From positions 1 to 57,382 of the IMG/VR virus record IMGVR_UViG_3300010384_000007: DNA of 57,382 bases; one strand, given 5' to 3'. The stretch is from a virus. Taxonomy: Duplodnaviria > Caudoviricetes. Positions within the stretch are counted from its first letter, which is position 1. Each line of letters begins with the position of its first letter. The notes below the pieces were generated by a model. It worked only from the letters and a program-made list of their open reading frames with translations. It had not been told where the DNA came from and ran no database searches. The translations under genes were made by a program, and so were the position numbers. Below, one piece after another: positions 7,893 through 26,968 of the stretch.

Positions 7893-8372
7893 ATGGCGGA
7901 TCGAACCCGGAGTAGCACTAAAGCGAGTAGCAATGCGCTCAATGCGATTGAGCGGCAGGTTCAGGCTGTCTCGCTCCGGAAGCGCGGGTACACCTTCCAG
8001 CAGATCGCTGACGAGCTTGGTTACGCCGGGCATCAGGGGGCGTACAAGGCGGTCATGGCCGCCCTGAAGAAGACGCTCAAGGAGCCGTCTGACGAACTCC
8101 GGAACCTCGAACTGGAGCGACTGGACGCCATGTGGCAGTCCCTTTGGCCCGCCATCGAACGGCAAGACAAGTACACGCCCCGGACGGTTGAGGTGGCGCT
8201 GAAGGTGATGGACCGGCGGGCGGCGTTGCTCGGGCTAGACGCACCGCAGAAGCGGGAAGACAAGCTCACCGTCGAGTACCGCGAGTTGGTGCAGGAAATG
8301 GCTGGTGCGGCCGGCCTTGACACTGACGACGTGATGCGAGAGCTCGAAGCCATCCTGGGCGGTGGCCGATGA
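7893..8372 (+). CDS. terS: Terminase small subunit (HTH type)
   Basis: GYTFQQIADELGY HTH and RRAALLGLDAP; directly upstream of TerL. Confidence 0.8.
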   Translation: MADRTRSSTKASSNALNAIERQVQAVSLRKRGYTFQQIADELGYAGHQGAYKAVMAALKKTLKEPSDELRNLELERLDAMWQSLWPAIERQDKYTPRTVEVALKVMDRRAALLGLDAPQKREDKLTVEYRELVQEMAGAAGLDTDDVMRELEAILGGGR

Positions 8373-9874
8373 ATACCGCGCTGACGCCGAGACAGGCAGT
8401 AGCGGGGGCGATCTGGCGGGTGCAGCGCAAGCGGGCCAACCCGGCCCGGTCGTCGCTGATGGCGTTCAACCGGGCGATGTCGCCGGGGTACATTGCGGGC
8501 AAGCATATCGACGCGCTGGTTGCCGCGCTCGAAGCGGTGGAGCGGGGAGAGCTGGCCCGGCTTATCGTGACGATGCCGCCACGCCATTCGAAGAGCTTCA
8601 ACGTCTCCGAGCATTTCCCGGCGTGGTTCCTGGGGCGCAATCCCGACAAGCGCATCATCGCCTCATCGCATACCGCACAACTCTCCTACACCTTCAGCCG
8701 CCGGGTACGGAACAAGCTGGCACAGGCAGAGTGGCCGTTCCCGGAAGTTCGGGTTGCCGGGGACAAGGGGGGCGTAACAGCGTGGGACATTGCCAGGCGA
8801 AAGGGTGGATACCTCTCCGTTGGCGTTGGTGGGTCGCCAACGGGCCACGGCGCTGATCTGATCCTGATCGACGACCCGATCCGTTCTGCGGCAGACGCTG
8901 ATTCCGAGACGGTACGGGAGGGTGTCTGGGAGTGGTATCAGGGGACGCTGCGCACCCGGCTTCAGCCGGGTGGCGCAATTATTCTGACCGCAACACGCTG
9001 GCACGAAGATGATCTGACCGGACGCTTGCTTTCCGAGATGGAACATGGCGGCGAGCAATGGACGCATATCCACATGCCCGCGCTCGATGATGAGGGATCG
9101 GCGCTCTGGCCCGAGTACTGGCCGGTAGAAGCTCTGGAGAAGATCAGGCAGTCTGTTGGTTCCCGCGTCTGGCAAGCGCAATACATGGGGGCTCCGGCTC
9201 CCGCCGAGGGCGGCACGTTCAAGCGGCACTGGTGGCGCTACTGGCAGCCGCGCGGCATGGCCCTCCCGCCGGTGCCGGTCCGCTTCCCCGATGGCTCCGT
9301 CCGCCCAATCGCGGCTGTCGAACAGCCGGCCTGGTGGGACAAGTCGGCGCAGTCCTGGGACATGACGTTCAAGGAGACCAAGGAGGGCAGCTACGTCGTC
9401 GGGCTCGCCGGCGCGACACATGGCCCGGACCTCTTCATCATGCCCCGCATGTTCCGCGAGCGAACGGATTTCCCCGGCACCGTCAACGCCGTGGTCGACC
9501 TCGCTCAGTACTACCCCGACTTCCTCGCCAAGTACATCGAGGAGAAGGCGAACGGCGCCGCCGTCATCGACACGTTGAAGCGATCCGTTGGCGGGCTGAT
9601 CCCGGTGCAGGTCGAAGGCAGCAAGGAAGCCCGCGCCCACGCGGTGACGCCACTTGTTGAGGCCGGGAACGTCTACCTGCCCCATCCCGCCCTTGCGCCG
9701 TGGGTCGAGGACTTCATCGCCGAATTGGCCGCGTTCCCGAACGGCGCGCATGACGACCAGGTAGACGCCTTCACGCAGCTCGCCCGGCCCCTGATCGGGA
9801 CCAGCCAAACAACCGGCCCGCTGCAGGACAGCCCGCTCCTGCGCTCCCTGCAACGCCAACGAGGAGTCAGGTAG
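8369..9874 (+). CDS. terL: Terminase large subunit
   Basis: MPPRHSKS Walker A, LILIDDP Walker B, TRWHEDDL, IEEKANG and FPNGAHDDQVDA nuclease motifs. Confidence 0.96.
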   Translation: MNTALTPRQAVAGAIWRVQRKRANPARSSLMAFNRAMSPGYIAGKHIDALVAALEAVERGELARLIVTMPPRHSKSFNVSEHFPAWFLGRNPDKRIIASSHTAQLSYTFSRRVRNKLAQAEWPFPEVRVAGDKGGVTAWDIARRKGGYLSVGVGGSPTGHGADLILIDDPIRSAADADSETVREGVWEWYQGTLRTRLQPGGAIILTATRWHEDDLTGRLLSEMEHGGEQWTHIHMPALDDEGSALWPEYWPVEALEKIRQSVGSRVWQAQYMGAPAPAEGGTFKRHWWRYWQPRGMALPPVPVRFPDGSVRPIAAVEQPAWWDKSAQSWDMTFKETKEGSYVVGLAGATHGPDLFIMPRMFRERTDFPGTVNAVVDLAQYYPDFLAKYIEEKANGAAVIDTLKRSVGGLIPVQVEGSKEARAHAVTPLVEAGNVYLPHPALAPWVEDFIAELAAFPNGAHDDQVDAFTQLARPLIGTSQTTGPLQDSPLLRSLQRQRGVR

Positions 9875-9875
9875 T

Positions 9876-11462
9876 GTGGCACATCTCCTGGAGCGCATCA
9901 TGACCAGCATTCGGGCCGGTGCGGCCGCGTGGACCCAGTACGACAACGACAACCCGGGCCGGACGCTCCCCGACCTCTACTCCCTGCGCTGGGCCATGTA
10001 CTCCGGCTCGCTGTTCGATGACCTCAACCAGTGGTCGGAGCTGATGCGCGACCGGCGCGTCTACGCCAACACGTCCTACCTGTACAAGCACGTTCCGGCG
10101 GTCGTGAACTTTTACGCCACGACGGTGTACCAGGGCGATCTGAGCACGGACGGCAAGCCGCTGCCGGACGGGACGCGGGGTGCGATTCCGATCGATCCGC
10201 AGGTCAGCACGGACGCCGAGGCGGCGCAGCTGCTCCGGGCGATCAGCGAGCTCTGGAACGCCTGGAACTGGCGGCAGGGCATGGCGATCCGACCGACCAT
10301 CGGTGCCGCGCTGGGCGACTGCTACACCGAGCTGTACGACGACATCGACCGAGGGTTTGTCTATCCCGTGACCATCTGGCCGGGGTACGTCACGGAGCTC
10401 ACGCTCGACGCAGTGGGCAACGTCAAGGCCTACACGCTGGAGTACCAGGTCACGGAGGTGGACGCGAAGGGCAAGCTGACCGAGACCTACACGTTTACCA
10501 AGCAGGTGGACAAGGAGGCGTTCCGGTACTTCAAGGACGGTCGGCCCTGGGCCTTTGCGGGGATCGGGCCTGCCGTGCAGCCGAACCCGTACGGATTCGT
10601 GCCGATGGTGGCCGACCGGCACACCGTCAATCCGTTCTCCGAGCGCGGCATGGCAGCAGCCGACAGTGCGATGCAGGGGTTGTTGCAGCTCAACAGCCTG
10701 CTCTCGCACGGTCGCGACCTGCAGCACAAGATCTTCAACGCGCCGATCGTGATCCGCTCGGGGCAGAGCCTGGCCCCGAGCAACCCGAATATCGACCTCT
10801 CCGGGCCGGTCGGCAGCCAGACGGCCGATGAGAACGCCCGGGCGATGGCGGAGACGCTGAACTACTGGCAGGGCGACAAGGACGCCGGCATCCAGCAGCC
10901 GGAGGCCGACGTCGCCGGCATGCTCGCCATGATCGAGTTCATCCGCGACGGCATCCTCGCCGAGAACCCTGAAGCCTCCTTCTTTCGCGAGCTCCGGAAC
11001 ATGAGCCAGGTGACAGCGCCCGGCGCTGAACGGCTGCTCGGCGATGCGGCGGCCCGGTGCCGGAAGGCGCGGGCTGGCTACGACGCCGGGAGCATCAAGG
11101 CGTTCCAGATGGCGATCGCCATGCTCGGCTGGCGCGCTCATCAGCGTGTGGGCATTGGTTGGCAGGGACCGCTGACCAAGCGCCAGCAGGTGTTCCTGCC
11201 CTACGACTTGGCGAGCTACAAGGCGGGGCTGATGGACTTCGGCATCTCCGACCGCCCGGTGATCCTGCCGACCGAGACGGAGCGGATCGACCTGCTGGCC
11301 CGGACGGCGGAACTTGGGCAGTGGGGGCTGACGCAGTTGGGCAAGAGCCCCGCCGAGATCACCATGATCCTGAACGATCAGGCCCGACACGACTTGCTGG
11401 CGGGCGACCTCGCGCCGCTGGTCGATGAGAGCGCAGACAGCGCCGAGGAGCACGCAGCATGA
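9876..11462 (+). CDS. Portal protein
   Basis: 528 aa directly after TerL; NPYGFVP motif typical of SPP1-like portals. Confidence 0.82.
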   Translation: MAHLLERIMTSIRAGAAAWTQYDNDNPGRTLPDLYSLRWAMYSGSLFDDLNQWSELMRDRRVYANTSYLYKHVPAVVNFYATTVYQGDLSTDGKPLPDGTRGAIPIDPQVSTDAEAAQLLRAISELWNAWNWRQGMAIRPTIGAALGDCYTELYDDIDRGFVYPVTIWPGYVTELTLDAVGNVKAYTLEYQVTEVDAKGKLTETYTFTKQVDKEAFRYFKDGRPWAFAGIGPAVQPNPYGFVPMVADRHTVNPFSERGMAAADSAMQGLLQLNSLLSHGRDLQHKIFNAPIVIRSGQSLAPSNPNIDLSGPVGSQTADENARAMAETLNYWQGDKDAGIQQPEADVAGMLAMIEFIRDGILAENPEASFFRELRNMSQVTAPGAERLLGDAAARCRKARAGYDAGSIKAFQMAIAMLGWRAHQRVGIGWQGPLTKRQQVFLPYDLASYKAGLMDFGISDRPVILPTETERIDLLARTAELGQWGLTQLGKSPAEITMILNDQARHDLLAGDLAPLVDESADSAEEHAA

Positions 11463-13303
11463 CGACGATTACCGGGCCGGTCCTCAAGCCGGACAACGTG
11501 ACCATCTGGACTGGCCTGCTGATCGCCTTCCACGCCAGACCCGGCGACTATGGTGCGTCGTCGGTGCTGCCCGAACCGCTGGTCAAGACGAGGACGGACA
11601 GCCTCGGGGCCTTCTCGGTCGATCTGCCTGCGGGCGAGTATGTCGTCAGCTATCCGGAGTACAGCGAAAGCTACTTCGAGGCGCAGACGGCGCCGGAGAC
11701 GCGGTTCAGCATCACCGTTCCGGCGAGTGGGCCGGTGAGCTTGCAGGTGCTCCGCAACCAGACGTTGCAGCAGGCCGGCGGGTACGTCACCCGCGCGGCG
11801 CTGGGGGCGGACGTGGCGGCGGCGACTGACGCTGCCATCGGTGGCGGCTGGGGGCACACGGTTGCGATCACCGGAGACAGCAAAGCGGCGGGGGCGGCCG
11901 ATGCTGTCAACCGGTCCTACTTCCGGGCGTGGGGGATCTGGACCGGTGTCGCGGCCAACGGCAAGATCGACATGCCACACATCTGGGGACATGGTGGCTG
12001 GACCTCGGCCCAGCTGCTCGATGTCTTCGATGCCGAAATCCTGTCACTCAATCCCGATGTGGTCATCGAGGACATGGGGACCAACGACTCCCTCGATGGC
12101 AACAATTCCGCGGCTGGCACGATCGCAAACATCGCGGAAATCCACCGGCGAACTCGGGCGGCAGGTGCTGCCCTGGTGATGACGACGCTGACGCCATCCG
12201 GGTGTCCGGCGGTACCGACTCCGGCGGCACCGACCGTGGTCGTCGAAGCGACTGGCGGGACCATTGGCGCGTCCAGTCCGCAGTACAAGGTGGTGTGGGC
12301 CAATGCGCTTGGCGCGACCCTGCCCAGCCCTGCTGCGACGGCAACCGTATCCAGCGGGACGACCAACGCCGTGGTCATCGAGGTGCCGTATCGCGATGAT
12401 GTGATCGGATGGGACCTCTACAAGTCCACTGACGGCGGCACGACGTTCTTGCGCCTCGCCCAGGTGCGTGGCTCCGGGGGCCAGGGACGATACGCCTGCT
12501 GGTATCGAGACACGGGGAGCGGGACGCCTGCGGGCTCACCTCCGGCGAGCAACACGACCGCGAAGGCGATGCTGGCCGCAGATCGCCGCAAGATCCTCAC
12601 GATCAATGCCGCCAAGCGTGCCTATGCGGAGGCTAACGGCGTCCTGTTGGTGGACCTGTATCGTGTAGTCGTTGACCCACTGACGGGTGCATGGGCGGCA
12701 GGGCTGACCGTGGATGGGACTCACCCATCGAGCCTCGCCTGCAAGCTGCTGGGAGAGGCGGTATGGGCAGCCATTGCGTCACGCATCCGACCGCGCGTCA
12801 CGATGGGGTCGTGGGACAACGCCGATCCGCTCAACCTCGTCCCGGACAACAGCGGCAATCCCAACGGACTCCTACTGACCAACGACGGGACTGTCCCATC
12901 CGGGATGGGAGATTACGGCGGCAGCACGTCCGGGCTGACCAGGACCACGGGGACACGGAGCGGGCACACGGGCGCAGCGTTTGCCGTGACCCGGACAGCA
13001 CACGAGCCCCGGTATTGTGGGCTACCGGCCAAGGCGGTCACACCGGGGCGTGTGATCCAGGCCGCTATCACCATCGAGATGGTCGGGGCCGGCGCAATCG
13101 GGGTGGTCAAGTGGGGATACAACCCGGCAAACCTGCACTGGCGATACACCTTTGACCAACCGATCGGCCCAACGCGCATCCAAACGCCTCCTGTGGTGGT
13201 GCCCGCCGGGGTCACGGCCATCTATGCTGAGGTTGACCTTGGCTCGGAGGCTCCCGGCACGATCGCGGTCAGCGACCTTGTGATCTACGATGTGACACCC
13301 TAG
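11459..13303 (+). CDS. SGNH/GDSL-hydrolase-domain virion-associated protein
   Basis: ITGDS, GHGGWTS, DMGTND and DGTHP blocks; Ig-like N-terminus and beta-rich C-terminus. Confidence 0.78.
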   Translation: MTTITGPVLKPDNVTIWTGLLIAFHARPGDYGASSVLPEPLVKTRTDSLGAFSVDLPAGEYVVSYPEYSESYFEAQTAPETRFSITVPASGPVSLQVLRNQTLQQAGGYVTRAALGADVAAATDAAIGGGWGHTVAITGDSKAAGAADAVNRSYFRAWGIWTGVAANGKIDMPHIWGHGGWTSAQLLDVFDAEILSLNPDVVIEDMGTNDSLDGNNSAAGTIANIAEIHRRTRAAGAALVMTTLTPSGCPAVPTPAAPTVVVEATGGTIGASSPQYKVVWANALGATLPSPAATATVSSGTTNAVVIEVPYRDDVIGWDLYKSTDGGTTFLRLAQVRGSGGQGRYACWYRDTGSGTPAGSPPASNTTAKAMLAADRRKILTINAAKRAYAEANGVLLVDLYRVVVDPLTGAWAAGLTVDGTHPSSLACKLLGEAVWAAIASRIRPRVTMGSWDNADPLNLVPDNSGNPNGLLLTNDGTVPSGMGDYGGSTSGLTRTTGTRSGHTGAAFAVTRTAHEPRYCGLPAKAVTPGRVIQAAITIEMVGAGAIGVVKWGYNPANLHWRYTFDQPIGPTRIQTPPVVVPAGVTAIYAEVDLGSEAPGTIAVSDLVIYDVTP

Positions 13304-13353: not shown

Positions 13354-14292
13354 GTGCTCACCCGTGACCGCCAGCTCTACACGTTGCTCCGGGACGGCTT
13401 CGCCCTCGTGGATGGGTTCTCCCGGTCGCTCGGGGCGGCCTTGCGGCGGGCGGTGCTCGACTTCCCGGCGGCCATCACCCGTAGCACGACGGGATGGCTG
13501 ATGCGCCAGATCGACGGGCTGCTCGGCAAGGCGTTCGGCCTGACCAAGGCGGCGGCGCTGACCTCCGAGTTGTTCGGCGCGATCCTGACGTCCACCGATC
13601 GGGGGGCGCTCCGGCCCTTCGAGGCGCTCTGGCAGCGCATGGAGCGGGCCGTCGAGCGCAAGGGCGCGGGGCTCTGGGGGCGGGTGAAGGCCGGGATGCT
13701 GCGGCAGGGCCTGGAGAGCAACGACCCGCTCGCCCGGACGCTGGCCCGCTTCGAGGCGGACCGGCAGGCGTTCGCCCGCTCCGGCAAGCTGGACGCCAAC
13801 CGGCGATGGGTCGAGGGCGACGGGACGCGCTACCGGCTGTCGGACCGCATCTGGCGTCAGGGGCAGAAGGTCCGCCGGGAGATCGACCGCACGGTCCGGG
13901 AGGGCATCAAAGCCGGGCAGACGCCGGACCAGATCGCGCGCCGGATCGAACGCTACGTCGCACCGGGGCAGGAGGGGCAGGCCGCTCGCCACGCCCGGCT
14001 GCTGGTGCAGGCGGAGACGGCGCACGTCTACCACGAGGCGGAGAAGCAGGCGGCGGAGATTGCCCCGGACGTGGTGGGGCTGCGGTGGGTCCTGTCGGCC
14101 AGCCATAGCTACGACGACGAGTGCAACGACTACGCGGAGGACGAGAGCGACGGGCTAGGGCCGGGCGGCTACCGGCCGCGCAACGTGCCGGAGATGCCGC
14201 ACCCGAGATGCGCGTGTCGCCGGGCGCTGATCTTCCGCGAGGACCTGCGGCTGGGCGACTATCTGATCGAGAAGTACGGAGGCACGATGTGA
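13354..14292 (+). CDS. Minor head / head morphogenesis protein (MuF/gp7-like)
   Basis: ARLLVQAET, LRWVLS..H..DEC and PHPRCACR motifs; start uncertain (see findings). Confidence 0.75.
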   Translation: MLTRDRQLYTLLRDGFALVDGFSRSLGAALRRAVLDFPAAITRSTTGWLMRQIDGLLGKAFGLTKAAALTSELFGAILTSTDRGALRPFEALWQRMERAVERKGAGLWGRVKAGMLRQGLESNDPLARTLARFEADRQAFARSGKLDANRRWVEGDGTRYRLSDRIWRQGQKVRREIDRTVREGIKAGQTPDQIARRIERYVAPGQEGQAARHARLLVQAETAHVYHEAEKQAAEIAPDVVGLRWVLSASHSYDDECNDYAEDESDGLGPGGYRPRNVPEMPHPRCACRRALIFREDLRLGDYLIEKYGGTM

Positions 14293-14480
14293 TGGAGAGT
14301 GCGGAACAGAGGGAGGGCGTGAGGTTATGGGATTCGGCGCCAACCGGACTTGCGGCAGCGACGGCTGCAAGGATGGTGCGGAGCCAGCAGCGGACGGAGC
14401 GTGGCGTATGGGTCAACGGCTTCATAGTTGGGATGAACGTTTCCGTGCTCATTGTCTGGATTGTGATGGTGTTGCGATGA
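14292..14480 (+). CDS. Small membrane protein
   Basis: C-terminal hydrophobic segment GFIVGMNVSVLIVWIVMVL; coupled start. Confidence 0.45.
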   Translation: MESAEQREGVRLWDSAPTGLAAATAARMVRSQQRTERGVWVNGFIVGMNVSVLIVWIVMVLR

Positions 14481-14559
14481 CCACCTCCCTCTGCGACTAC
14501 TGCCCGGACGAGACGGATGACGACGGGTACGTGTGCCCGGTGTGCGGAGGGACGTACTG

Positions 14560-14733
14560 ATGATCGCCCGGACCCAACCCGTCGGCGTCAAGCTGAAGCC
14601 CGATCCGCCCGAGGATGACGCCACCAAGGTCAAGCGCATGTCCGCCACCGTTCGTCGTCACTTGATCGCCATCAGCAAAGTTGCCGACGAACTGGAACGG
14701 ATGGCGGAAGAGCAGGAGCGGAAGGCCGCCTAA
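14560..14733 (+). CDS. Hypothetical protein
   Basis: GGAGG RBS; ends convergently with the RHH gene. Confidence 0.5.
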   Translation: MIARTQPVGVKLKPDPPEDDATKVKRMSATVRRHLIAISKVADELERMAEEQERKAA

Positions 14734-14873
14734 CCTTTCCCCCGGTTATCCAGCGCCTTGCGCAGCAGATGGACGATCTGCGCGTTCAGTGAGCGATCCT
14801 CCGCCGCTGCCCACTTCTTCAATTCTTCCCATAGCTCTGTTGGCAATCGAAGCACCAAGCGTGTCACCTCCAT
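14730..14873 (-). CDS. Arc/Mnt-like ribbon-helix-helix regulator, 47 aa (absent from the ORF track)
   Basis: Hand translation MEVTRLVLRLPTELWEELKKWAAAEDRSLNAQIVHLLRKALDNRGKG*; AAGGAGG RBS; LRLP...RSLN.QIV Arc signature. Confidence 0.88.
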   Translation of the reverse strand: MEVTRLVLRLPTELWEELKKWAAAEDRSLNAQIVHLLRKALDNRGKG

Positions 14874-14893
14874 GGGTGTATCCCTCCTTGCCG

Positions 14894-14942
14894 ACAGTAT
14901 CACGCCGACATCGTTGCAATACTAGTATCATGATGATACTGT
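14894..14942. promoter_or_regulatory. Divergent promoter/operator region
   Basis: AT-rich; perfect inverted repeat AGTATCA-TGA-TGATACT at 14924-14940 and an extra half-site ACAGTATCA at 14894-14902. Confidence 0.65.
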
Positions 14943-14965
14943 AGAGATGTCACCTTAGGGTGTCA

Positions 14966-15135
14966 GGCATGGTGAGGTCCGGCGTGGTTTGGCATGGTGT
15001 GGCGTAGCGAGGCATGGCTTGGCAGGCGGGGCGGGGATGGGTTGGGCTTGGTGGGTCAGGCGAGGCTAGGCAAGGTGAGGCAGGCTAGGCGGGGCGCGGT
15101 TTGGCAAGGTGTGGCGGGGCACGGCAGGTTTGGCA
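14966..15135 (+). ncRNA. GGY-NN pentamer array (putative guide-like ncRNA)
   Basis: 30 pentamers plus 5 tetramers, 33 of 35 starting GGY, with variable NN; GGCA tetramers at 15021, 15079, 15123 and 15132. The repeat is certain; RNA function is inferred. Confidence 0.75.
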
Positions 15136-15155
15136 GTTCACAGGAGGCGCACTAG

Positions 15156-15743
15156 ATGGCAACGGCAGGCATCAGCATTCCGGCTCCGGACATTCGCACG
15201 GTGACGTTTCGCATCGAGGGCACGACGCCGCTGATCTCGCACAAGTGGAGTGAGAAGGCGAAGAAGGCGATGCTCGACAAGCAGATGAAGAAGGCGGCCC
15301 CGGCAAAGGAAGCCAAGAACCCGGAAAAGGATTTCGAGGATTCGATCTATCGCCTGCCGGATGGCGGCTGTGGGTTCCCGGCTATCGGGTTCAAGGCAGC
15401 GATGGTGCGGGCGGGGAAGTCGCTCGGTCTGGCGATGACCGATCTTCGCGCTGCTTTCCACATCAATGGCGAGCGCGGCGTGGACGGTGAAGACCTCATC
15501 CGCATCATCGGCGATCCGTCTCCCCGCGAGGACATGGTTCGCATTGCGATGGGCACTGCAGACATCCGATACCGAGCTGAGTTTGTCGGTTGGTCTGCCG
15601 ACATCACGATCAAGTACAACGCGCGAAATATCAGTGACGAGCAACTTGCCGCGCTGCTGATGCAGGCGGGGTTCGGCACTGGCGTCGGAGAATGGCGCCC
15701 GGAGAAGGACGGATCGTTCGGCATGTGGGAGTTGGCAGCATGA
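15156..15743 (+). CDS. Stand-alone Cas7/RAMP-like protein
   Basis: N-terminal beta strand FRIEGTTPL, FPAIGFKAAM helix and C-terminal Gly-rich loop AGFGTGVGEWRPEKDGSFG; AGGAGG RBS. Confidence 0.72.
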   Translation: MATAGISIPAPDIRTVTFRIEGTTPLISHKWSEKAKKAMLDKQMKKAAPAKEAKNPEKDFEDSIYRLPDGGCGFPAIGFKAAMVRAGKSLGLAMTDLRAAFHINGERGVDGEDLIRIIGDPSPREDMVRIAMGTADIRYRAEFVGWSADITIKYNARNISDEQLAALLMQAGFGTGVGEWRPEKDGSFGMWELAA

Positions 15744-16216
15744 TCTACGAATGGCGCAAGCATGGAGCACCTGGAGCGGGTGTAGATGCGCAGACGGTCG
15801 GAGAGGCCATCGCCAGCATTGCCGAACGGGAAGGGATGTGTACCCCGGCCCGTTTGGTGCAGGAAGCAGGAGGCGGTGCAAGGGACTTGCACCGCCTCTT
15901 CACCTGGGACGACGCGGAGGCCGCACAGCGGTGGCGCGTCCAGGAAGCTCGCAACGTCATCAATGCTATTGTTGTTCGTGTCGAGCGCAATGGGCAGGAA
16001 ACGGAGGCGCCGGCATTCGTCAGCGTGGGGCGCATCGCTGAAACGCAAGATCGAGGGGCGGGGTATCGCCCGGTCCAAGTTGTCGTACAGGACCCGGAGT
16101 TTCGTGCCGAGGCGCTCCAGGAGGCGATCAAGGACTTGAACGCGATCCGGAGGCGGTACGAGGCAATCAAAGAGCTTTCTCCCGTCTGGGACCTAGTGGA
16201 CCGTATCGCCGCTTAG
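15740..16216 (+). CDS. Phage protein partnered with the RAMP-like gene
   Basis: ATGA overlap with the RAMP gene; LHRLFTWDDAEAAQRWRVQEARNVI motif; function unknown. Confidence 0.75.
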   Translation: MIYEWRKHGAPGAGVDAQTVGEAIASIAEREGMCTPARLVQEAGGGARDLHRLFTWDDAEAAQRWRVQEARNVINAIVVRVERNGQETEAPAFVSVGRIAETQDRGAGYRPVQVVVQDPEFRAEALQEAIKDLNAIRRRYEAIKELSPVWDLVDRIAA

Positions 16217-16241
16217 GACGTATTCACGTACGCTATGACCG

Positions 16242-16259
16242 TGCTATGATGAACATAAC
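16242..16259 (+). promoter_or_regulatory. Putative extended -10 promoter for head genes
   Basis: TGcTATGAT followed by gaaCATAAC. Confidence 0.55.
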
Positions 16260-16292
16260 CGCATAACGGCCACCCGGCGCATTGCGTCGGCT

Positions 16293-16352
16293 CGCCCTCT
16301 GTCGTTCGTGGACGCAGGCTTTGCCTCCCTCCCGAGCAGCAGAGGGCGTTTT
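16293..16352 (+). terminator. Leader hairpin/terminator
   Basis: CGCCCTCTG...CAGAGGGCG followed by TTTT. Confidence 0.55.
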
Positions 16353-16456: not shown

Positions 16457-16999
16457 ATGACGGACACCACCACGACCACCACCGAATCCACGACGACCGA
16501 GACGACCGAGCCGAAGAAGATCGAGTTCTCGCCTGAACAGTCGGAATGGATCTCCAAGAAGATCGCGGCGGAGTTGAAGTCAGATCGCGAAAAGCGGGAC
16601 GCGGCGGCGGCTGACGAGAAGCGCAAGGCGGATGAAGCCCGTCAGCGGGACGAAGCCACCAAGCGTGGCGAGTTCGACAAGGTCAAGGCCGATCTGGACC
16701 AGGCGATCGCCGCGAAGGATGCCCAGATCGAATCCCTGACCGCTGAGCTGACTACCCTGCGCGAGCAAGCGGAACGCGACTACAAGGCCGCTGTGGCCAA
16801 GCTGCCCGAGGACTACCGGGCGATGGCGCCAAACGATGACGAGCCGATCACGGAGCGACAGACGTGGCTTGCCAAGGCCAGCCAGCTTGCCGAGAAGCGC
16901 ATTGCGGACACCCCACGAGGCAACGGTGGCAACCCGCCACCGAGCGGCGGCGGACAGGGCCCCATCGAAAGCCCCGTCCCCAAGTCGAAACTGATGTAA
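16457..16999 (+). CDS. Capsid scaffolding protein
   Basis: Acidic Thr-rich N-terminus, coiled coil and Gly/Pro-rich C-terminus; lies before the capsid genes. Confidence 0.8.
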   Translation: MTDTTTTTTESTTTETTEPKKIEFSPEQSEWISKKIAAELKSDREKRDAAAADEKRKADEARQRDEATKRGEFDKVKADLDQAIAAKDAQIESLTAELTTLREQAERDYKAAVAKLPEDYRAMAPNDDEPITERQTWLAKASQLAEKRIADTPRGNGGNPPPSGGGQGPIESPVPKSKLM

Positions 17000-17009
17000 G
17001 GAGCGACGC

Positions 17010-17453
17010 ATGGCCGATCTGACGGTCACTCCCGCCCGGCTGCGAGAAGGCGAGGCCGTCCTTGGACGCCGACAGCCAACCGTGGCCGATGAGTCTATCA
17101 GCCGAGGGCAGCTGGTCTATCGCAAGACCAACGGCCGGGTCGCCAAGGCCCGAGCCAATGCCGTCGGCACCGCCAAGGCAATCGGCTTCGCCACGAGCGA
17201 CGCCAACGCCGGGGATACGGTCGAGGCGCTGAAGGAGGGCATCCTCTTCGGATTCGACCTCTCTTCGGTCAACCCCGGGGCCACCCTCTACCTGTCCACC
17301 GCGACCGCTGGTGCCGTGCAGGACACCAAGCCGACCGGCACCGGCAATGTCGTCTTCCCCGTCGGCTCGGTGCAGCAGATGACGGACGTCAACGGGACCA
17401 AGTTCTTGTACGTCGACATCTCGCTTAGCGCCGATCCCGTCGCGCTGCCGTAG
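17010..17453 (+). CDS. Capsid decoration/cement protein
   Basis: ISRGQLVY, AIGFA and PGATLYLS motifs; between scaffold and major capsid protein. Confidence 0.7.
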   Translation: MADLTVTPARLREGEAVLGRRQPTVADESISRGQLVYRKTNGRVAKARANAVGTAKAIGFATSDANAGDTVEALKEGILFGFDLSSVNPGATLYLSTATAGAVQDTKPTGTGNVVFPVGSVQQMTDVNGTKFLYVDISLSADPVALP

Positions 17454-17470: not shown

Positions 17471-18538
17471 ATGAGCCTGTTTGGCGGCATCCTCAAGGTT
17501 GACAGCACGAAGCCGCTCAACCTCATCAACGATGCGGACCTCACGTCCGCCATGAACGCCGTGCTGGAGAAGTACCAGCAGGCCCGCGACGAGGCGCAGA
17601 ACCTCTTCGTGGTCGAGCAGACGACCAAGCCGAGCGAGCGCGTCGTCCTCGCTGGCTACGACGAGGGGCAGACCCTCGGTCCGGACGGACGGCCGATCGA
17701 GACGCACACCGCCGGCGACTTCACCGTTGCCTATCCGATCATCCGTCTCGGCTGGGCGCTCGGATGGAACGAGGAGACCTACGCCCGGAAGACGGTGGCG
17801 GACCTCGATCGTGAGGTTGCGGCGAAGACGGCGGGCAACGCCAAGCGTCACGCCCGCGAGATTCTGAAGGCGATCGGCAACAACACCAACTACACCTACA
17901 AGGATGTCGACTACGGCGACCTGACGATCCGGCGCCTCGCCAACAGCGACGGCACCCTCTACCCGGCGGCGGTCAACTCCGACACCGAGGCGGAAGACAA
18001 CCATTACCTGGTGTCCGGCTACGCAGCGGGATCGATCAGCCCGACGAACAACCCGTTCGTCACGCTGGCGGCCGAGGTTCGCGAGCACGTCGACCTGGCT
18101 GCGCCGGTGGTCGCGTTCATCAACTCCGCCCAGCGCATCCAGGTGCTCACCGGCATCACGAACTTCGTGGACACGCCGGTGAGCGGTATCAGCCCGGCGT
18201 ACGGCGAGCAGGTTGCCAGCGAGCTGGCGGGCGTCAACGTCCCCGGCACCTTCCTCGGCGTCGATCCCAACTCCGGCGCCTACGTCTACATCTGGGACCG
18301 TGTCCCGGACGGCTACATCGTCGCGGGCGTTGTCGGTGCCGATGCGCCGGTCAAGCGCCGCATCCCCGAGTACGCGAGCCTTGCGGGTTTCCGGCTCGTG
18401 GACGAGCAGAAGAACTGGCCCTTCTGGAAGCAGACGTGGGTCGAGCGGTTCGGCTACGGCGTCGCCAACCGGCTGGGCTTCGCGGTCATGCAGCTGACGA
18501 CCAACGGGTCCTATACGACCCCGGCGGCCTGGAGCTAA
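17471..18538 (+). CDS. Major capsid protein
   Basis: 355 aa, position, strong RBS and C-terminal ERFGYGVANR motif. Confidence 0.8.
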   Translation: MSLFGGILKVDSTKPLNLINDADLTSAMNAVLEKYQQARDEAQNLFVVEQTTKPSERVVLAGYDEGQTLGPDGRPIETHTAGDFTVAYPIIRLGWALGWNEETYARKTVADLDREVAAKTAGNAKRHAREILKAIGNNTNYTYKDVDYGDLTIRRLANSDGTLYPAAVNSDTEAEDNHYLVSGYAAGSISPTNNPFVTLAAEVREHVDLAAPVVAFINSAQRIQVLTGITNFVDTPVSGISPAYGEQVASELAGVNVPGTFLGVDPNSGAYVYIWDRVPDGYIVAGVVGADAPVKRRIPEYASLAGFRLVDEQKNWPFWKQTWVERFGYGVANRLGFAVMQLTTNGSYTTPAAWS

Positions 18539-22822: not shown

Positions 22823-25800
22823 GTGGCCGTCACCGCCGCCCAAGTCAAGGTCGAATTCAGGTCCGACGGCGCCGACAAGGTAGCCGGGGACCTGCGTTCG
22901 CTTGGCAAGGCGACCGACGACGCGGCCAAGAAACAGGGCTTCCTCGCTAGCGCGGCCAGTACCGCGATGGGCGTGGTGGGCGGGGGGCTCATCCTCGGGG
23001 CCATCAGCCAGGTTACCGCGTTCGGCAAGTCCGCCATCGGCGCCGGGCTGAGCTTCGAGCAGGGGATGGCAAACGTCGCCGCCGTGACGGGCGCAACGGG
23101 TACGGAACTCAAAACGCTCTCCGACCTCGCGCTCAAGATCGGCAAGGACACGGCGTTCGGCGCGAACGAAGCGACGCTGGCGATTGAAGAACTCGCCAAG
23201 GCCGGCGTCAGTACTCAGTCCATCCTGAACGGTGCGGCTGATGGGGCTGTGGCTCTTGCCGCTGCTGGTGGGGTTGCGCTTCCCGAAGCCGCCGCCGTTA
23301 TGTCTGCGGCGCTCAACCAGTTCGGCCTCGACGGCACACAGGCGACGCACGTTGCTGATCTACTCGCCGCAGCGGCGGCTACATCGGCGACGGGCGTCTC
23401 CGAGCTGGGCGAATCCCTGACCTACGTTGGCACCACCGCCCACGCGCTCAGCATCCCAATCGAAGACATCGTGACGGCGCTGGCGGCGATGGGTGACCAG
23501 GGTCTCATCGGCTCGATGGCCGGCACTGCGCTGAACCAGGCGCTCCTGCACATGACAAGCCCGACCGATACGGCGCGGGCGGCGATGGACGCGCTGGGGG
23601 TCAGCTTCGTCGATGTCAACGGGGCAATGAAGCCACTGCCGCAGATCGTTTCCGAGCTTGCTGCGGCGACTGCAGGGCTGAGCGATACCGCCCGGATGGA
23701 CTACCTCACGGATATCTTCGACGTGCAGGGCGCCCGAGCGATGAATGCGCTGCTCGCCACGCAGACCGATGCGGCAAAGGCCGCGGGCAAGAGCTGGGAA
23801 GACTACTACGCCTCGGTCAACCAGTCCGGTGCGGCTGCCCAGCAAGCCGCCGCGCGCATGGATAACACCCTCGGCTCCATCGAACAGTTGAAGGGCTCGC
23901 TCGAAACGCTGGCGATCATCGGGTCAATGATGGTCCTGCCGATGTTCCGCAGCATGATCGACGGGGCGGCGAAGGGGGTAGACGCCTTCACCGGCTTCAT
24001 CACCGCGATTCAGTCGCTCATCGGCGGAGGCAATGATCCGTTCACGGCAATCAGCCTGGCGATGCGGGGCTTCTTGACCAGCCTCTTTGGCCTTCGCGCC
24101 ATGAACCAGCTCATGCCGATGGTAGACGGACTGCTGGACGGCTTGCAGATGCTTGCGGACGGTGCGCAGGCCGCTGCGGCGGTCGTCGGTCCGATGCTCG
24201 GGGCAGCGTTCGCGTTCCTTGGAGACCACCTTACCGATGTCGTGGCGGCCCTCGGCGGCGTGCTCGCTGTCTTTGGCGGACTACTGGCGTGGAGCGCGCT
24301 TACCGCAGTCGTGGCGGCGCTTGGCGGGGCATTCCTAGCCCTGCTTGGTCCGCTCGGCCTCTTGATGGCGGCCGGTGCGGCCCTCGGCATCGCCTGGAAC
24401 CGAAACCTCTTCGGTATCCAGCAGAAAGTTGGCAAGGCGTTCTCTGCTGTTGCCACCGGCGCTAAGACGACGTTCGCGATCTTCCGTTCACTGACCGGTG
24501 TGATGAACCCGGTGGCTGCGGTCGTCGGCACGGTCGGGACGGGACTCGCCATCCTCGCTGCCCGCTTCCCGGCAATTGCCGGCCCAGTCGGTGCTGTCGC
24601 CAACGTCTTCAATCGCCTTACCGGCGTGCTGGACGATGCGGGTCAGCAGCTCAGCGCGTTCATGGACCAGGGGCTCAACCCCGTCGCGGCGGCGGCTGGG
24701 GTAGTTGCCGTTGGCTTCGCCAAGCTCGCGGATATGTTCCCGCAGTTCTCCGGATTCTTCTCCGGCATGCGCGACCAGTTCTCTGGCTGGATGGGCGTGG
24801 CGCAAGACCTCGGCACGGGGCTGGTCGATCTGTTCCGGGGCGACCTCTCCGGGGCCATGCTCGCGTTCGGCAACGCGGCGACGCAGGTCTGGGACAACGT
24901 CATCAACGGTGCGCAGACGCTCTGGACGGGCGTGCAGGAACTCGGAGGCGCGCTCTGGGACGCGGTGACCGGCGTCGATTGGGATGCGGTTGGCGCAACA
25001 GCCGGATCGCTCCTGTCGTCCGCGCTCAACCTTGCCATCAGTGGGACAGAGGCGCTGGGGGGCCTTGCCGCCAACCTGCTCGGCGGTCTGCTCAACACGC
25101 TCGTCTCGGTGGACTGGGCGGCGGTCGGAAACACGGTGAAGGGTTACCTCTCCAATGCCCTGAGTCTCGCCGTGGATGGGGTGCAGGCGTTGGCGGGGCT
25201 TGCGTCCTCGCTGCTTGGCTCCCTGCTCAATACCCTTTCCTCGGTCAACTGGGGTGCGGTTGGCGATACGGTCAAGGCGTATCTGTCTTCGGCGCTCAGC
25301 CTGGCTGTGGATGGAGTCCAGGCGCTCGCCGGTCTGGCCGATAGCCTGCTTGGTGGGCTGCTCAACACCATCAGTGCGGTGAACTGGGGCGCGGTCGGAG
25401 ACACGCTGCGGCAACTCTTCATGTCCGCGATGGCCAACGCCTTCTCGGCAGGGCAGTCGATCGGTGATGCCATTGGCGGCGGGATCGACCTCGCCGCGCA
25501 ACTGCTTGGTTGGCTGACCGCGCAGATGGCCGATGTGGATTGGGATTCGGCGGGGCAGACGTTCGGGCAGTTCCTCGGACACGCCATTCAAGGCATTTTC
25601 ACCGGTGGGGTCGCCCTCGTCGGTCTGGCCGGAGAGTTCCTTGGCGGCATTCTCAACAGCCTCGCGGATGTGGATTGGGATGCTGTCAAGAGCACGATCG
25701 GGCAGTTCCTCGTTGCGGCTGTGAAGGCTGCCGGGGAGTTCCTGAAGGGGACGTTCAAGGGGCTTTGGGATGGCCTGACAGATGGTTTGGAAGAGCAGGT

Positions 25801-26968
25801 GTCTCGGGCTCGAGATACGATCTTCAACTTCCTGAACGACATTATCGGCGGCATCAACAAAGTCATCGGTGGGTTGAACAAGCTACCCGGCGTGGATATC
25901 CCTGAGATTCCGCTCATCATCACGCCCAAGGTACAGATGGAGGGGCTCGGAGCCAGTGTCGCCGCGTGGGCAAAAGACCTTGGTGCGAAAGCCGCCGACG
26001 AAATGGCAGCAGCCTTTCAGAACCGGCTCAACACAGGCGCGATTGCAGGAAAGAACGCGGTCAATTGGGCGCGGAACCTCTATCCGGAGCCGACACCTGA
26101 GGCTGTCCCCGTTGCCCTCCCGCCGGGCATTGGCAATATCGGCCAGCTCGGCATGGGCAAGTACGACCAGACCGGCAATCGCGACATCACCATCACGATC
26201 AAGCAGGTGGGCGCCGAATCCGTCGCGGCCGCTGCGGCCATCGCCCAGGCAGCCATTGCCGCGATCCCGACCTCCTGGACGTCCTTCATTCTCCAAAGTG
26301 GCGCGGAGAGTGTGGCTGCCGCCGCTGTGGTCGCGCAAGCCGCCATTGCGGCGATCCCGACCAGCTGGACGACGTTCATCCTGCAGACGGGCGGCGAGGC
26401 GGTGGCCGCCGCCGCGGCGATCGCCCATGCGGCGATTGCCGCCATCCCCACGAGCTGGACGACGTTCTTTCTATACTCGGGCGCTGATGCCGTGATCGGC
26501 GCTGCCCATGACGTGGCTGCCGCCATTGCCGCGATCCCGAGCAGCAAGACCATCACCATCAGCACGGTCTCTATCGGCACCCCGAAGGCGTCCGGCGGCT
26601 ACGTCAACGGCGCGCTGACCCGGCTGGCAGAACTTGGCCCGGAACTGGTTTCGTTGCCAGGAGGGCAGTGGATGATGGCGCTTCGGGATGCCCTCTACCC
26701 CACGCCGATGGGCTCCTACGTCTACACGGCGGGACAGACGCGGGCGATGCAGGCCAGCCTGACGACGGTCGGCGCGTATGCGAGTGGCGGCTACGTCGGT
26801 GGGCGGCGGGGCGGATCGGGCGGTTACGGCGGGACGACCGTCGTGGTCGAAGTCCACGGCAACGTCTACGGCATGGACGACCTCGACCGGCAGGTTGGCG
26901 GCCGGGTGATCCAGGCGCTGGCCGAAGAGAGCGCCCGCCGCAACCGGGCACTGGGGGTGAGGCGATGA
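22823..26968 (+). CDS. Tape measure protein (TP901-type core)
   Basis: 1381 aa, Ala/Gly-rich; FEQGMANVAAV and GSMAGTAL core; VDWxAVG repeats; about 30-aa AAIAAIPTSWT repeats. Confidence 0.93.
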   Translation: MAVTAAQVKVEFRSDGADKVAGDLRSLGKATDDAAKKQGFLASAASTAMGVVGGGLILGAISQVTAFGKSAIGAGLSFEQGMANVAAVTGATGTELKTLSDLALKIGKDTAFGANEATLAIEELAKAGVSTQSILNGAADGAVALAAAGGVALPEAAAVMSAALNQFGLDGTQATHVADLLAAAAATSATGVSELGESLTYVGTTAHALSIPIEDIVTALAAMGDQGLIGSMAGTALNQALLHMTSPTDTARAAMDALGVSFVDVNGAMKPLPQIVSELAAATAGLSDTARMDYLTDIFDVQGARAMNALLATQTDAAKAAGKSWEDYYASVNQSGAAAQQAAARMDNTLGSIEQLKGSLETLAIIGSMMVLPMFRSMIDGAAKGVDAFTGFITAIQSLIGGGNDPFTAISLAMRGFLTSLFGLRAMNQLMPMVDGLLDGLQMLADGAQAAAAVVGPMLGAAFAFLGDHLTDVVAALGGVLAVFGGLLAWSALTAVVAALGGAFLALLGPLGLLMAAGAALGIAWNRNLFGIQQKVGKAFSAVATGAKTTFAIFRSLTGVMNPVAAVVGTVGTGLAILAARFPAIAGPVGAVANVFNRLTGVLDDAGQQLSAFMDQGLNPVAAAAGVVAVGFAKLADMFPQFSGFFSGMRDQFSGWMGVAQDLGTGLVDLFRGDLSGAMLAFGNAATQVWDNVINGAQTLWTGVQELGGALWDAVTGVDWDAVGATAGSLLSSALNLAISGTEALGGLAANLLGGLLNTLVSVDWAAVGNTVKGYLSNALSLAVDGVQALAGLASSLLGSLLNTLSSVNWGAVGDTVKAYLSSALSLAVDGVQALAGLADSLLGGLLNTISAVNWGAVGDTLRQLFMSAMANAFSAGQSIGDAIGGGIDLAAQLLGWLTAQMADVDWDSAGQTFGQFLGHAIQGIFTGGVALVGLAGEFLGGILNSLADVDWDAVKSTIGQFLVAAVKAAGEFLKGTFKGLWDGLTDGLEEQVSRARDTIFNFLNDIIGGINKVIGGLNKLPGVDIPEIPLIITPKVQMEGLGASVAAWAKDLGAKAADEMAAAFQNRLNTGAIAGKNAVNWARNLYPEPTPEAVPVALPPGIGNIGQLGMGKYDQTGNRDITITIKQVGAESVAAAAAIAQAAIAAIPTSWTSFILQSGAESVAAAAVVAQAAIAAIPTSWTTFILQTGGEAVAAAAAIAHAAIAAIPTSWTTFFLYSGADAVIGAAHDVAAAIAAIPSSKTITISTVSIGTPKASGGYVNGALTRLAELGPELVSLPGGQWMMALRDALYPTPMGSYVYTAGQTRAMQASLTTVGAYASGGYVGGRRGGSGGYGGTTVVVEVHGNVYGMDDLDRQVGGRVIQALAEESARRNRALGVRR

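Follow-up and report, generated by a model that had tools for sequence, protein, structure and literature searches.

The virus record IMGVR_UViG_3300010384_000007 (Caudoviricetes, positions 1–57,382; a complete virus record, estimated to be 98% complete) represents the genome of a tailed phage with a guanine plus cytosine (GC) content of 65.8%. The whole stretch of 57,382 nucleotides (nt) is referred to here as the window. At positions 14966–15135 its + strand carries an array of 35 short units, arranged head-to-tail, which is followed by two overlapping genes. The array is very probably a tail-less "staggered" guide RNA array of the VIPR system, with the vipr gene at 15156–15743 and an accessory gene at 15740–16216, the two genes forming a mobile cassette within the head-gene region of the phage. 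VIPR systems comprise a RAMP protein of about 20 kDa (Vipr), an accessory vap and vrRNAs of 9–16 YNNGG repeats (10.64898/2026.04.26.720920), in which GGY is fixed and the dinucleotide NN is hypervariable (10.64898/2026.04.26.720920). The features of the array and of the gene pair are as follows:

14966–15024, + strand: predicted vrRNA unit 1, with 11 pentamers, including the degenerate AGCGA, and a closing GGCA at 15021–15024
14966–15020, + strand: NN dinucleotides of predicted unit 1, AT GA CC GT TT AT GT GT GA AT TT
15025–15082, + strand: predicted vrRNA unit 2, with 10 pentamers, an internal tetramer GGTG at 15050–15053 and a closing GGCA at 15079–15082
15083–15126, + strand: predicted vrRNA unit 3, with 8 pentamers (NN TA GG GC TT AA GT GG AC) and a closing GGCA at 15123–15126
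15127–15135, + strand: terminal GGTTT GGCA, followed by a ribosome-binding site AGGAGG at 15142–15147; no structured tail
15156–15743, + strand: vipr, encoding a Cas7-like RAMP protein of 195 amino acids (aa); PHROG 4652 ("unknown function"), 1.9e-32
15740–16216, + strand: candidate vap, 158 aa; phrog_15946, 2.9e-24

The 35 units consist of 30 pentamers and five tetramers, the latter being GGCA in four cases and GGTG in one. GG opens 29 of the 30 pentamers, with AGCGA as the exception; the third position is C or T with the sole exception of GGATG, and positions 4 and 5 vary freely. An earlier reading of the letters alone (the original prediction) had described positions 1–3 as near-invariant and positions 4–5 as free, in agreement with these counts, and its block boundaries, its lists of NN and the four closing GGCA were all found to be correct on re-reading. 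Unit 2 may be damaged, or it may represent two short units.

The array is rich in G (89 of the 170 bases), and the G-to-G autocorrelation amounted to 70, 62 and 59 at lags of 5, 10 and 15, respectively, versus 33–47 at the remaining lags up to 14. The pattern (GGYNN)x4+GGY was matched 11 times in the 57,382 bases, every time within the array and on the + strand, whereas 100 dinucleotide-preserving shuffles produced a mean of 0.03 matches and none of them reached 11. With a six-unit pattern and at most one mismatch, 16 matches were obtained on the + strand of the whole genome and none on the – strand, and all of them were located at 14961–15130. By these measures, the array is non-random and unique in its own genome. 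Tandem Repeats Finder yielded just weak rows of period 5 and period 10 at this site. The fold of 14950–15160 was no better than those of shuffles (z-score –0.69), and no Rfam family, hammerhead included, reached or came near its gathering score between 14000 and 16000. A blastn search of 14300–16300 against phage records gave no match. In a search of sequencing runs, no RNA run was found to contain the array sequence; the list comprised five DNA runs, none with a share above 0.21.

Proteins encoded beside the array

An AlphaFold2 model of the 195-aa protein, built from 50 relatives, had a predicted local distance difference test score (pLDDT) of 89.3 and a predicted template modelling score (pTM) of 0.83. 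According to this model, the product of 15156–15743 folds as a RAMP protein of the Cas7/Csm3 type. A Foldseek search of the PDB gave 65 matches with E ≤ 0.001, the highest ranks being taken by chains from CRISPR effector complexes of type III (Csm/Cmr) or type VII; the best match was 8do6_E (1.3e-05, TM score 0.56). Comparison with 48,161 chains by VIA-align gave Z scores of 11.5 for 6s6b_I (type III-B Cmr), 11.3 for 9g9a_D (a Csm complex) and 10.5 for 6ae2_B (Csm3), and 37 of the top 38 chains were CRISPR-associated. A Vipr effector is characterized as a minimal RAMP protein having an RRM core, a glycine-rich loop and a thumb. In the family of the window protein, a glycine-rich segment near the C-terminus is conserved more strongly than any other part, with G172 and G176 present in all of 50 sequences and G178, G186 and G189 in nearly all.

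A link to a characterized protein was obtained with the Vipr of phage SUSP1, which is YP_009199429.1 (Methods of 10.64898/2026.10.15.759431). A profile of 50 members of the clade matched it over the full length (residues 1–187) with 61.7 bits. In the structural work on VIPR, one protomer was assigned to each repeat, and the residues holding G1, G2 and Y3 were named (10.64898/2026.04.26.720927). The GGY-contact residues of SUSP1 correspond to those of the window protein as H17 to H29, K33 to K45, R138 to R140, D177 to E179, W178 to W180 and R179 to R181; the 50 sequences of the clade all have R140 and R181, and nearly all of them H29 and E179. Residues E71 and M72 of the Y3 pocket of SUSP1 are not kept, their places being taken by I77 and G78. 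By analogy, the window protein would bind one GGY per protomer. The locus is assigned to VIPR because of the Cas7-like fold, the match of 61.7 bits to the SUSP1 Vipr and the conserved GGY-contact residues.

The stop codon of vipr overlaps the ATG of the gene for the 158-aa protein (ATGA), which is a candidate for the accessory vap. The model of this protein (pLDDT 88.1) had its best structural match, a weak one, with winged-helix proteins (Z 4.5–6.4), and a Foldseek search with it returned no match at E ≤ 0.001.

Array design among relatives

When IMG/VR was searched with the 195-aa protein, 114 relatives were obtained, of which 80, with identities of 47–62%, were kept. Arrays were located with a chain detector, which recorded runs of at least seven GG steps. 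Period-5 GG arrays of up to 91 units were present on the gene strand in 65 of these 80 loci; many of the 15 loci without an array end just after the gene, and short chains on the opposite strand were seen in four loci only. The arrays of relatives lie upstream of the two genes, between them or, most often, downstream. By tblastn, a gene of the phrog_15946 family adjoined the vipr homologue in 60 of the 80 loci, and beyond the gene pair no gene of the window recurred, save one weak match to a terminase. This distribution indicates that the gene pair is a mobile cassette.

The converse search started from the array. When IMG/VR was scanned for ten successive GGYNN units followed by GGY, at least 120 viral stretches were found; among the first 80 of them, a protein matching the Vipr profile was present in 60, while tblastn with the window protein detected 29, and the family of the second gene was found in only 17. 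Arrays of this type and proteins of this family go together.

In 87 arrays of relatives, with 2,124 units in total, 1,727 steps of 5 nt and 210 steps of 4 nt were counted, and 175 of the 210 four-base units were exactly GGCA. Position 3 of the 1,727 pentamers was C in 1196, T in 416, A in 105 and G in 10 cases; NN was unconstrained. Distances from one GGCAGG to the next cluster at 5k+4, namely at 49 nt (42 cases), 54 nt (50), 59 nt (39), 44 nt (21) and 64 nt (13), which means that most units consist of 9–11 pentamers and a closing GGCA. The GGCA break, which the original prediction had proposed, is conserved across relatives, with the share of 175 in 210 and the regular spacing, and it fits the legend of fig. 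S18 on "staggered arrays" (see below).

The guides turn over quickly. Two loci with 100% identical Vipr proteins (L019 and L020) had zero perfect blocks in common, and none of the locus pairs with proteins of at most 97.8% identity shared a block. In alignments, whole blocks were gained or lost at GGCAGG junctions, and a few scattered differences occurred inside otherwise conserved blocks. Invariance of NN among relatives, which the original prediction had named as an argument against itself, was therefore not seen, since NN differed even between the two loci with identical Vipr.

Two loci showed different array designs in which the block size is unchanged: in L091 (5911–6150) the punctuation after about 11 pentamers is GGACTTTAG instead of GGCA, and in L093 (8312–8560) each block is followed by an AT-rich spacer of about 35 nt. 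In an IMG/VR provirus (L111, – strand, around 4314), GGYNN arrays stand directly after a sequence resembling the 3' end of a tRNA (GGTTCGACTCC, with a CCA-like end); arrays seem to alternate there with tRNA genes, and tRNA processing might release the guides.

Among cultured phages, tblastn revealed relatives in 34 records (RefSeq and GenBank copies both counted), 27 from phages of Mycobacterium, 5 of Gordonia, 1 cyanophage and 1 of Pseudomonas. Mycobacterium phage Quico carries a GGCA-staggered array directly upstream of the homologue and beside genes for a repressor, cro and an antirepressor. A cultured cluster of M. smegmatis phages (Quico, L216, NC_028751.1 37270–37640) shares this array and the gene pair, which in Quico is QUICO_57/QUICO_58, both annotated as hypothetical. 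Quico and the other cultured Mycobacterium and Gordonia phages with the GGCA design should provide a convenient model for bench work.

Function, targets and alternative readings

For other phages, experiments have shown that NN pairs with double-stranded DNA (dsDNA) under a skip of one base, the skipped base generally being located at the codon wobble position (10.64898/2026.04.26.720920). The natural targets of VIPR are competing phages and satellites (10.64898/2026.04.26.720920). The proposals of the original prediction, a gapped address made up of NN and a skip falling on wobble positions, match this reported mechanism (10.64898/2026.04.26.720920), and for the window their support comes from homology. 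By analogy to the systems of SUSP1 and P. fulva, the + strand of the array would be transcribed, and Vipr protomers would bind one per pentamer, each sequestering GGY and leaving NN exposed. The NN would then pair with dsDNA, with every third base skipped, and a filament would form, which would repress transcription of a competing mobile element.

Seven types of VIPR with varied array designs have been distinguished, including "staggered arrays with overlapping vrRNAs" (10.64898/2026.04.26.720920); according to the legend of fig. S18, staggered vrRNAs overlap by 1 nt, the end of one being the start of the next (10.64898/2026.04.26.720920). In the array of the window, the four-base step at GGCA would leave one base between successive GGYs and thereby break the 5-nt register of the filament, and this break would divide one transcript into guide units of about 9–12 repeats (11, ~10 and 8 in the window). 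GGCA can be regarded as a probable boundary of guide units because it is conserved, its spacing is regular and blocks are exchanged at GGCA sites; this also agrees with the legend in the preprint. A tentative extension, whose chances appear to be somewhat below even, is that the guides of this clade need no structured cap and perhaps no processing signal; the shortening to GGCA would then be the whole punctuation, which splits the transcript into complexes of about 10 protomers and lets guides be gained and lost as modules. If this is true, GGCA punctuation would be the simplest known way of delimiting guides in an RNA-guided system.

Target patterns were derived from units 1 and 3 with the 1-nt skip rule; unit 2 was left aside in the collections, as its internal tetramer makes the spacing in a target ambiguous. 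The gapped search against controls that had been suggested in the original prediction gave no excess over the controls in the collections scanned, the power being low, since the searches were either restricted to exact matches or made in small databases. A self-target was not found in the phage's own genome at 80% of NN, the best values being 73–75% and equal to those of shuffles; VIPR systems are likewise described as being without self-targets (10.64898/2026.04.26.720920).

In 401 genomes of the class that contains the nearest relative of the large terminase (TerL), the pattern of unit 1 with up to three mismatches was matched nine times versus four times for the control. The best of these matches, with 21 of 22 bases, is located on a bacterial chromosome (G304:C20:21138–21169, corresponding to L264 9939–9970); the rough expectation of such a match by chance in this search is ~0.01. 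The matched gene belongs to a set of three paralogues arranged in tandem on the chromosome, whose products of about 195 aa start with a hydrophobic segment resembling a signal. In this gene the skipped base is the first of its codon and not the wobble base, and the GC content is 55% for the contig versus 66% for the phage. In the same genome, unit 3 was matched at the control level only, and no relative of the capsid protein was found. As a natural target the match is unconvincing, and it is probably due to chance, in view of the codon position, the GC contents, the paralogues and the negative results for unit 3 and the capsid.

Several results weigh against a VIPR guide array in the window. 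Imperfections occur in two units out of three, as AGCGA in unit 1 and as GGTG within unit 2. The array lacks a conserved 3' tail like the one at the end of each SUSP1 vrRNA; this tail is a feature of the characterized type II clade and not of every VIPR type, and in the window GGCA leads straight to the next repeat or to the ribosome-binding site. Arrays that are staggered and tail-less are given as a further architecture of VIPR (10.64898/2026.04.26.720920). The 158-aa accessory protein showed no detectable similarity to vap1 of SUSP1. RNA sequencing has confirmed the hammerhead and single-vrRNA designs, and staggered arrays are not named among the confirmed designs (10.64898/2026.04.26.720920). 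The supporting literature consists of three preprints with most authors in common. The target searches point in the same direction: the exact 1-nt-skip pattern of unit 1 had no match in IMG/VR viral contigs and none in JGI metagenome contigs, its two 9-unit sub-patterns likewise had none, and no match with up to three mismatches was found for unit 1 in 50 whole viral records bearing VIPR. Unit 3, with 16 specified bases, was matched exactly 26 times (17 distinct 23-mers), which is no meaningful excess over its backwards control (14 matches, 14 distinct); its real matches were all in contigs of 33–58% GC. In a scan of the fetched loci (1.6 Mb) with 327 guides of relatives, with their shuffles and with skips of 0–3, a skip of 1 had no advantage over a skip of 0, a skip of 2 or shuffled guides.

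Some of these results would also suit an array in decay, whose former guides match nothing, or a decoy, which soaks up or redirects the Vipr of competitors in the manner of "solo" vrRNAs. Units 1 and 2 carry the defects mentioned, no target was found, and decoy and redirecting vrRNAs have been reported (10.64898/2026.10.15.759431). However, the array adjoins an intact vipr with conserved contact residues, internal degeneracy is frequent in vrRNAs (10.64898/2026.04.26.720920), and the target searches had the low power noted above; this explanation appears improbable.

The array might instead act in cis, as a 5' leader of the operon for vipr, e.g., an untranslated region tuning expression or stability by titration of a protein or as a G-quadruplex. 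Such a role would be in keeping with the high content of G, with the lack of a target in the searches and with the position of the array, which is flanked by a possible promoter on one side and by the ribosome-binding site of vipr on the other. It must nevertheless be considered very unlikely: GGG is avoided, G being found at position 3 in 10 of the 1,727 pentamers, which is the opposite of selection for quadruplex stability; the varying positions of the arrays of relatives, upstream of, between or downstream of the genes, do not fit a fixed role as a leader; and the homologous RNAs of SUSP1 act in trans (10.64898/2026.04.26.720920).

The short tandem units and the weak period-5 and period-10 rows of Tandem Repeats Finder might suggest a microsatellite grown by slippage or a neutral repeat of another kind. 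This reading is contradicted by three fixed positions next to unconstrained ones, a pattern that the original prediction had already judged unfit for slippage, and by the recurrence of the design with unrelated NN in 120 or more viral stretches and its tie to a single protein family; it has practically no probability left.

Some further candidates were discarded. An array of G-quadruplexes was rejected on account of the avoidance of GGG, and a coding repeat because the period of 5 is not divisible by 3 and blocks of 49, 54 and 59 nt keep no reading frame; an R-loop origin, a Rho-resistant spacer and ribosome standby sites were considered and dropped.

Genomic surroundings and comparison with known systems

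The guide array fills the gap between a divergent gene for a ribbon-helix-helix (RHH) protein and the gene for the 195-aa protein, within a series of phage head genes:

8369–9874: large terminase, upstream of the array
9876–11462: putative portal gene, assigned by position, without a family match
11459–13303: protein with a GDSL domain, upstream of the array
13354–14292: Mu F-like head morphogenesis protein, upstream of the array
14730–14873, – strand: RHH (Arc/CopG-like) gene, 47 aa; Pfam RHH_5 9.3e-09, Arc 3.3e-07; matches to PHROG families of Arc-like repressors
14894–14902: further (third) half-site ACAGTATCA, from an inverted-repeat search (100% complementary pair)
14915–14943, + strand: possible weak promoter TTGCAA-17 nt-TACTGT, read by eye; the transcript of the array would start near 14950
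14924–14940: operator-like perfect palindrome of 17 bp, AGTATCAT-G-ATGATACT, from an inverted-repeat search (100% complementary)
16457–16999: putative scaffold gene, assigned by position, no significant family match, downstream of the array
17010–17453: cement-like protein, downstream
17471–18538: major capsid protein, downstream

The RHH gene likely encodes a local transcription regulator; it is located outside the conserved cassette, and no homologue of it was found by tblastn beside the cassette in 160 related loci. The inverted repeats at 14894–14942 could serve as its operator, and in this phage the RHH gene may regulate the VIPR operon. The sequence TTGCAA-17-TACTGT remained below the threshold of the promoter scan, which gave two sites on the – strand of this region (14966–14938 and 14953–14924); a + strand promoter at 14915–14943 is thus proposed with low confidence.

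The protein encoded at 11459–13303 has 614 aa and a GDSL/SGNH hydrolase domain; its gene has the putative portal gene on one side and that for the Mu F-like head protein on the other, an odd site for an esterase. A 90-bp tandem repeat (2.9 copies, 74% matches) is present at 26209–26472, within an open reading frame of 1,381 aa (22823–26968), which is probably the tape measure gene. Relatives of the large terminase, with just 33–46% identity, occur in metagenome-assembled genomes of Acidobacteriota, Verrucomicrobiota and Clostridia; the Vipr profile had no match in four acidobacterial genomes.

The known systems with which the locus can be compared share single traits with it or, in the case of VIPR, most of them. 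In the trp leader of Bacillus, about 11 conserved GAG/UAG triplets at 5-nt spacing are read by the oligomeric TRAP protein, and the leader is a cis-acting attenuator. A TRAP-like attenuator leader had first been considered here for the 11 units at 5-nt spacing, and was then dropped. The triplet is a different one, no TRAP-like gene is present in the window, and the TRAP leader is an attenuator and not a guide.

The backbone proteins of class 1 CRISPR systems (Cas7, Csm3, Cmr4) resemble the window system in the RAMP fold (Z 9–11.5), in one protomer per short segment of RNA and in periodically flipped-out bases. Their period is 6 nt, whereas it is 5 nt in the window, where two of five guide bases would pair and the system is borne by a phage. 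Near the locus, Tandem Repeats Finder, Pfam and PHROG revealed neither a repeat-spacer array nor further cas-like genes, the neighbours being phage head genes and the RHH regulator.

Literature searches with the names of the motifs yielded no relevant work besides the three VIPR preprints. The closest counterpart is the type II VIPR of SUSP1, in whose genome the Vipr gene lies between two long intergenic regions with GGTNN repeats, one array being upstream and three downstream, in agreement with the published description (10.64898/2026.04.26.720920). Both phages possess a Vipr of about 195 aa of the same family with the same GGY-contact residues, and in both GGYNN repeats with variable NN adjoin an operon of two genes. 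SUSP1 has four discrete vrRNAs, each with a non-repeat stretch at the 3' end, which is a conserved, pseudoknot-containing tail of some 40 nt (10.64898/2026.04.26.720920), whereas the window has one continuous array without a tail, split by GGCA. The repeats are mostly GGT in SUSP1 and mostly GGC in the window. Compared to the stated range of 9–16 repeats for vrRNAs, the units of the window have 11, ~10 and 8, and unit 3 is thus one repeat short. The 1-nt overlap described in the legend for staggered vrRNA arrays is consistent with a unit of 4 nt set in a register of 5 nt.

The kind of system has already been described, and the array is a new member of VIPR, not a new kind. VIPR itself is a newly reported form of RNA-guided DNA recognition and a proposed ancestor of CRISPR effectors; the window adds an uncultivated phage of high GC content to this family and leaves the known mechanism unchanged. 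The survey of relatives puts numbers on the staggered array, the least-characterized of the designs: the break is almost always GGCA, units mostly contain 9–11 pentamers and the closing GGCA, and whole units are exchanged at the breaks.

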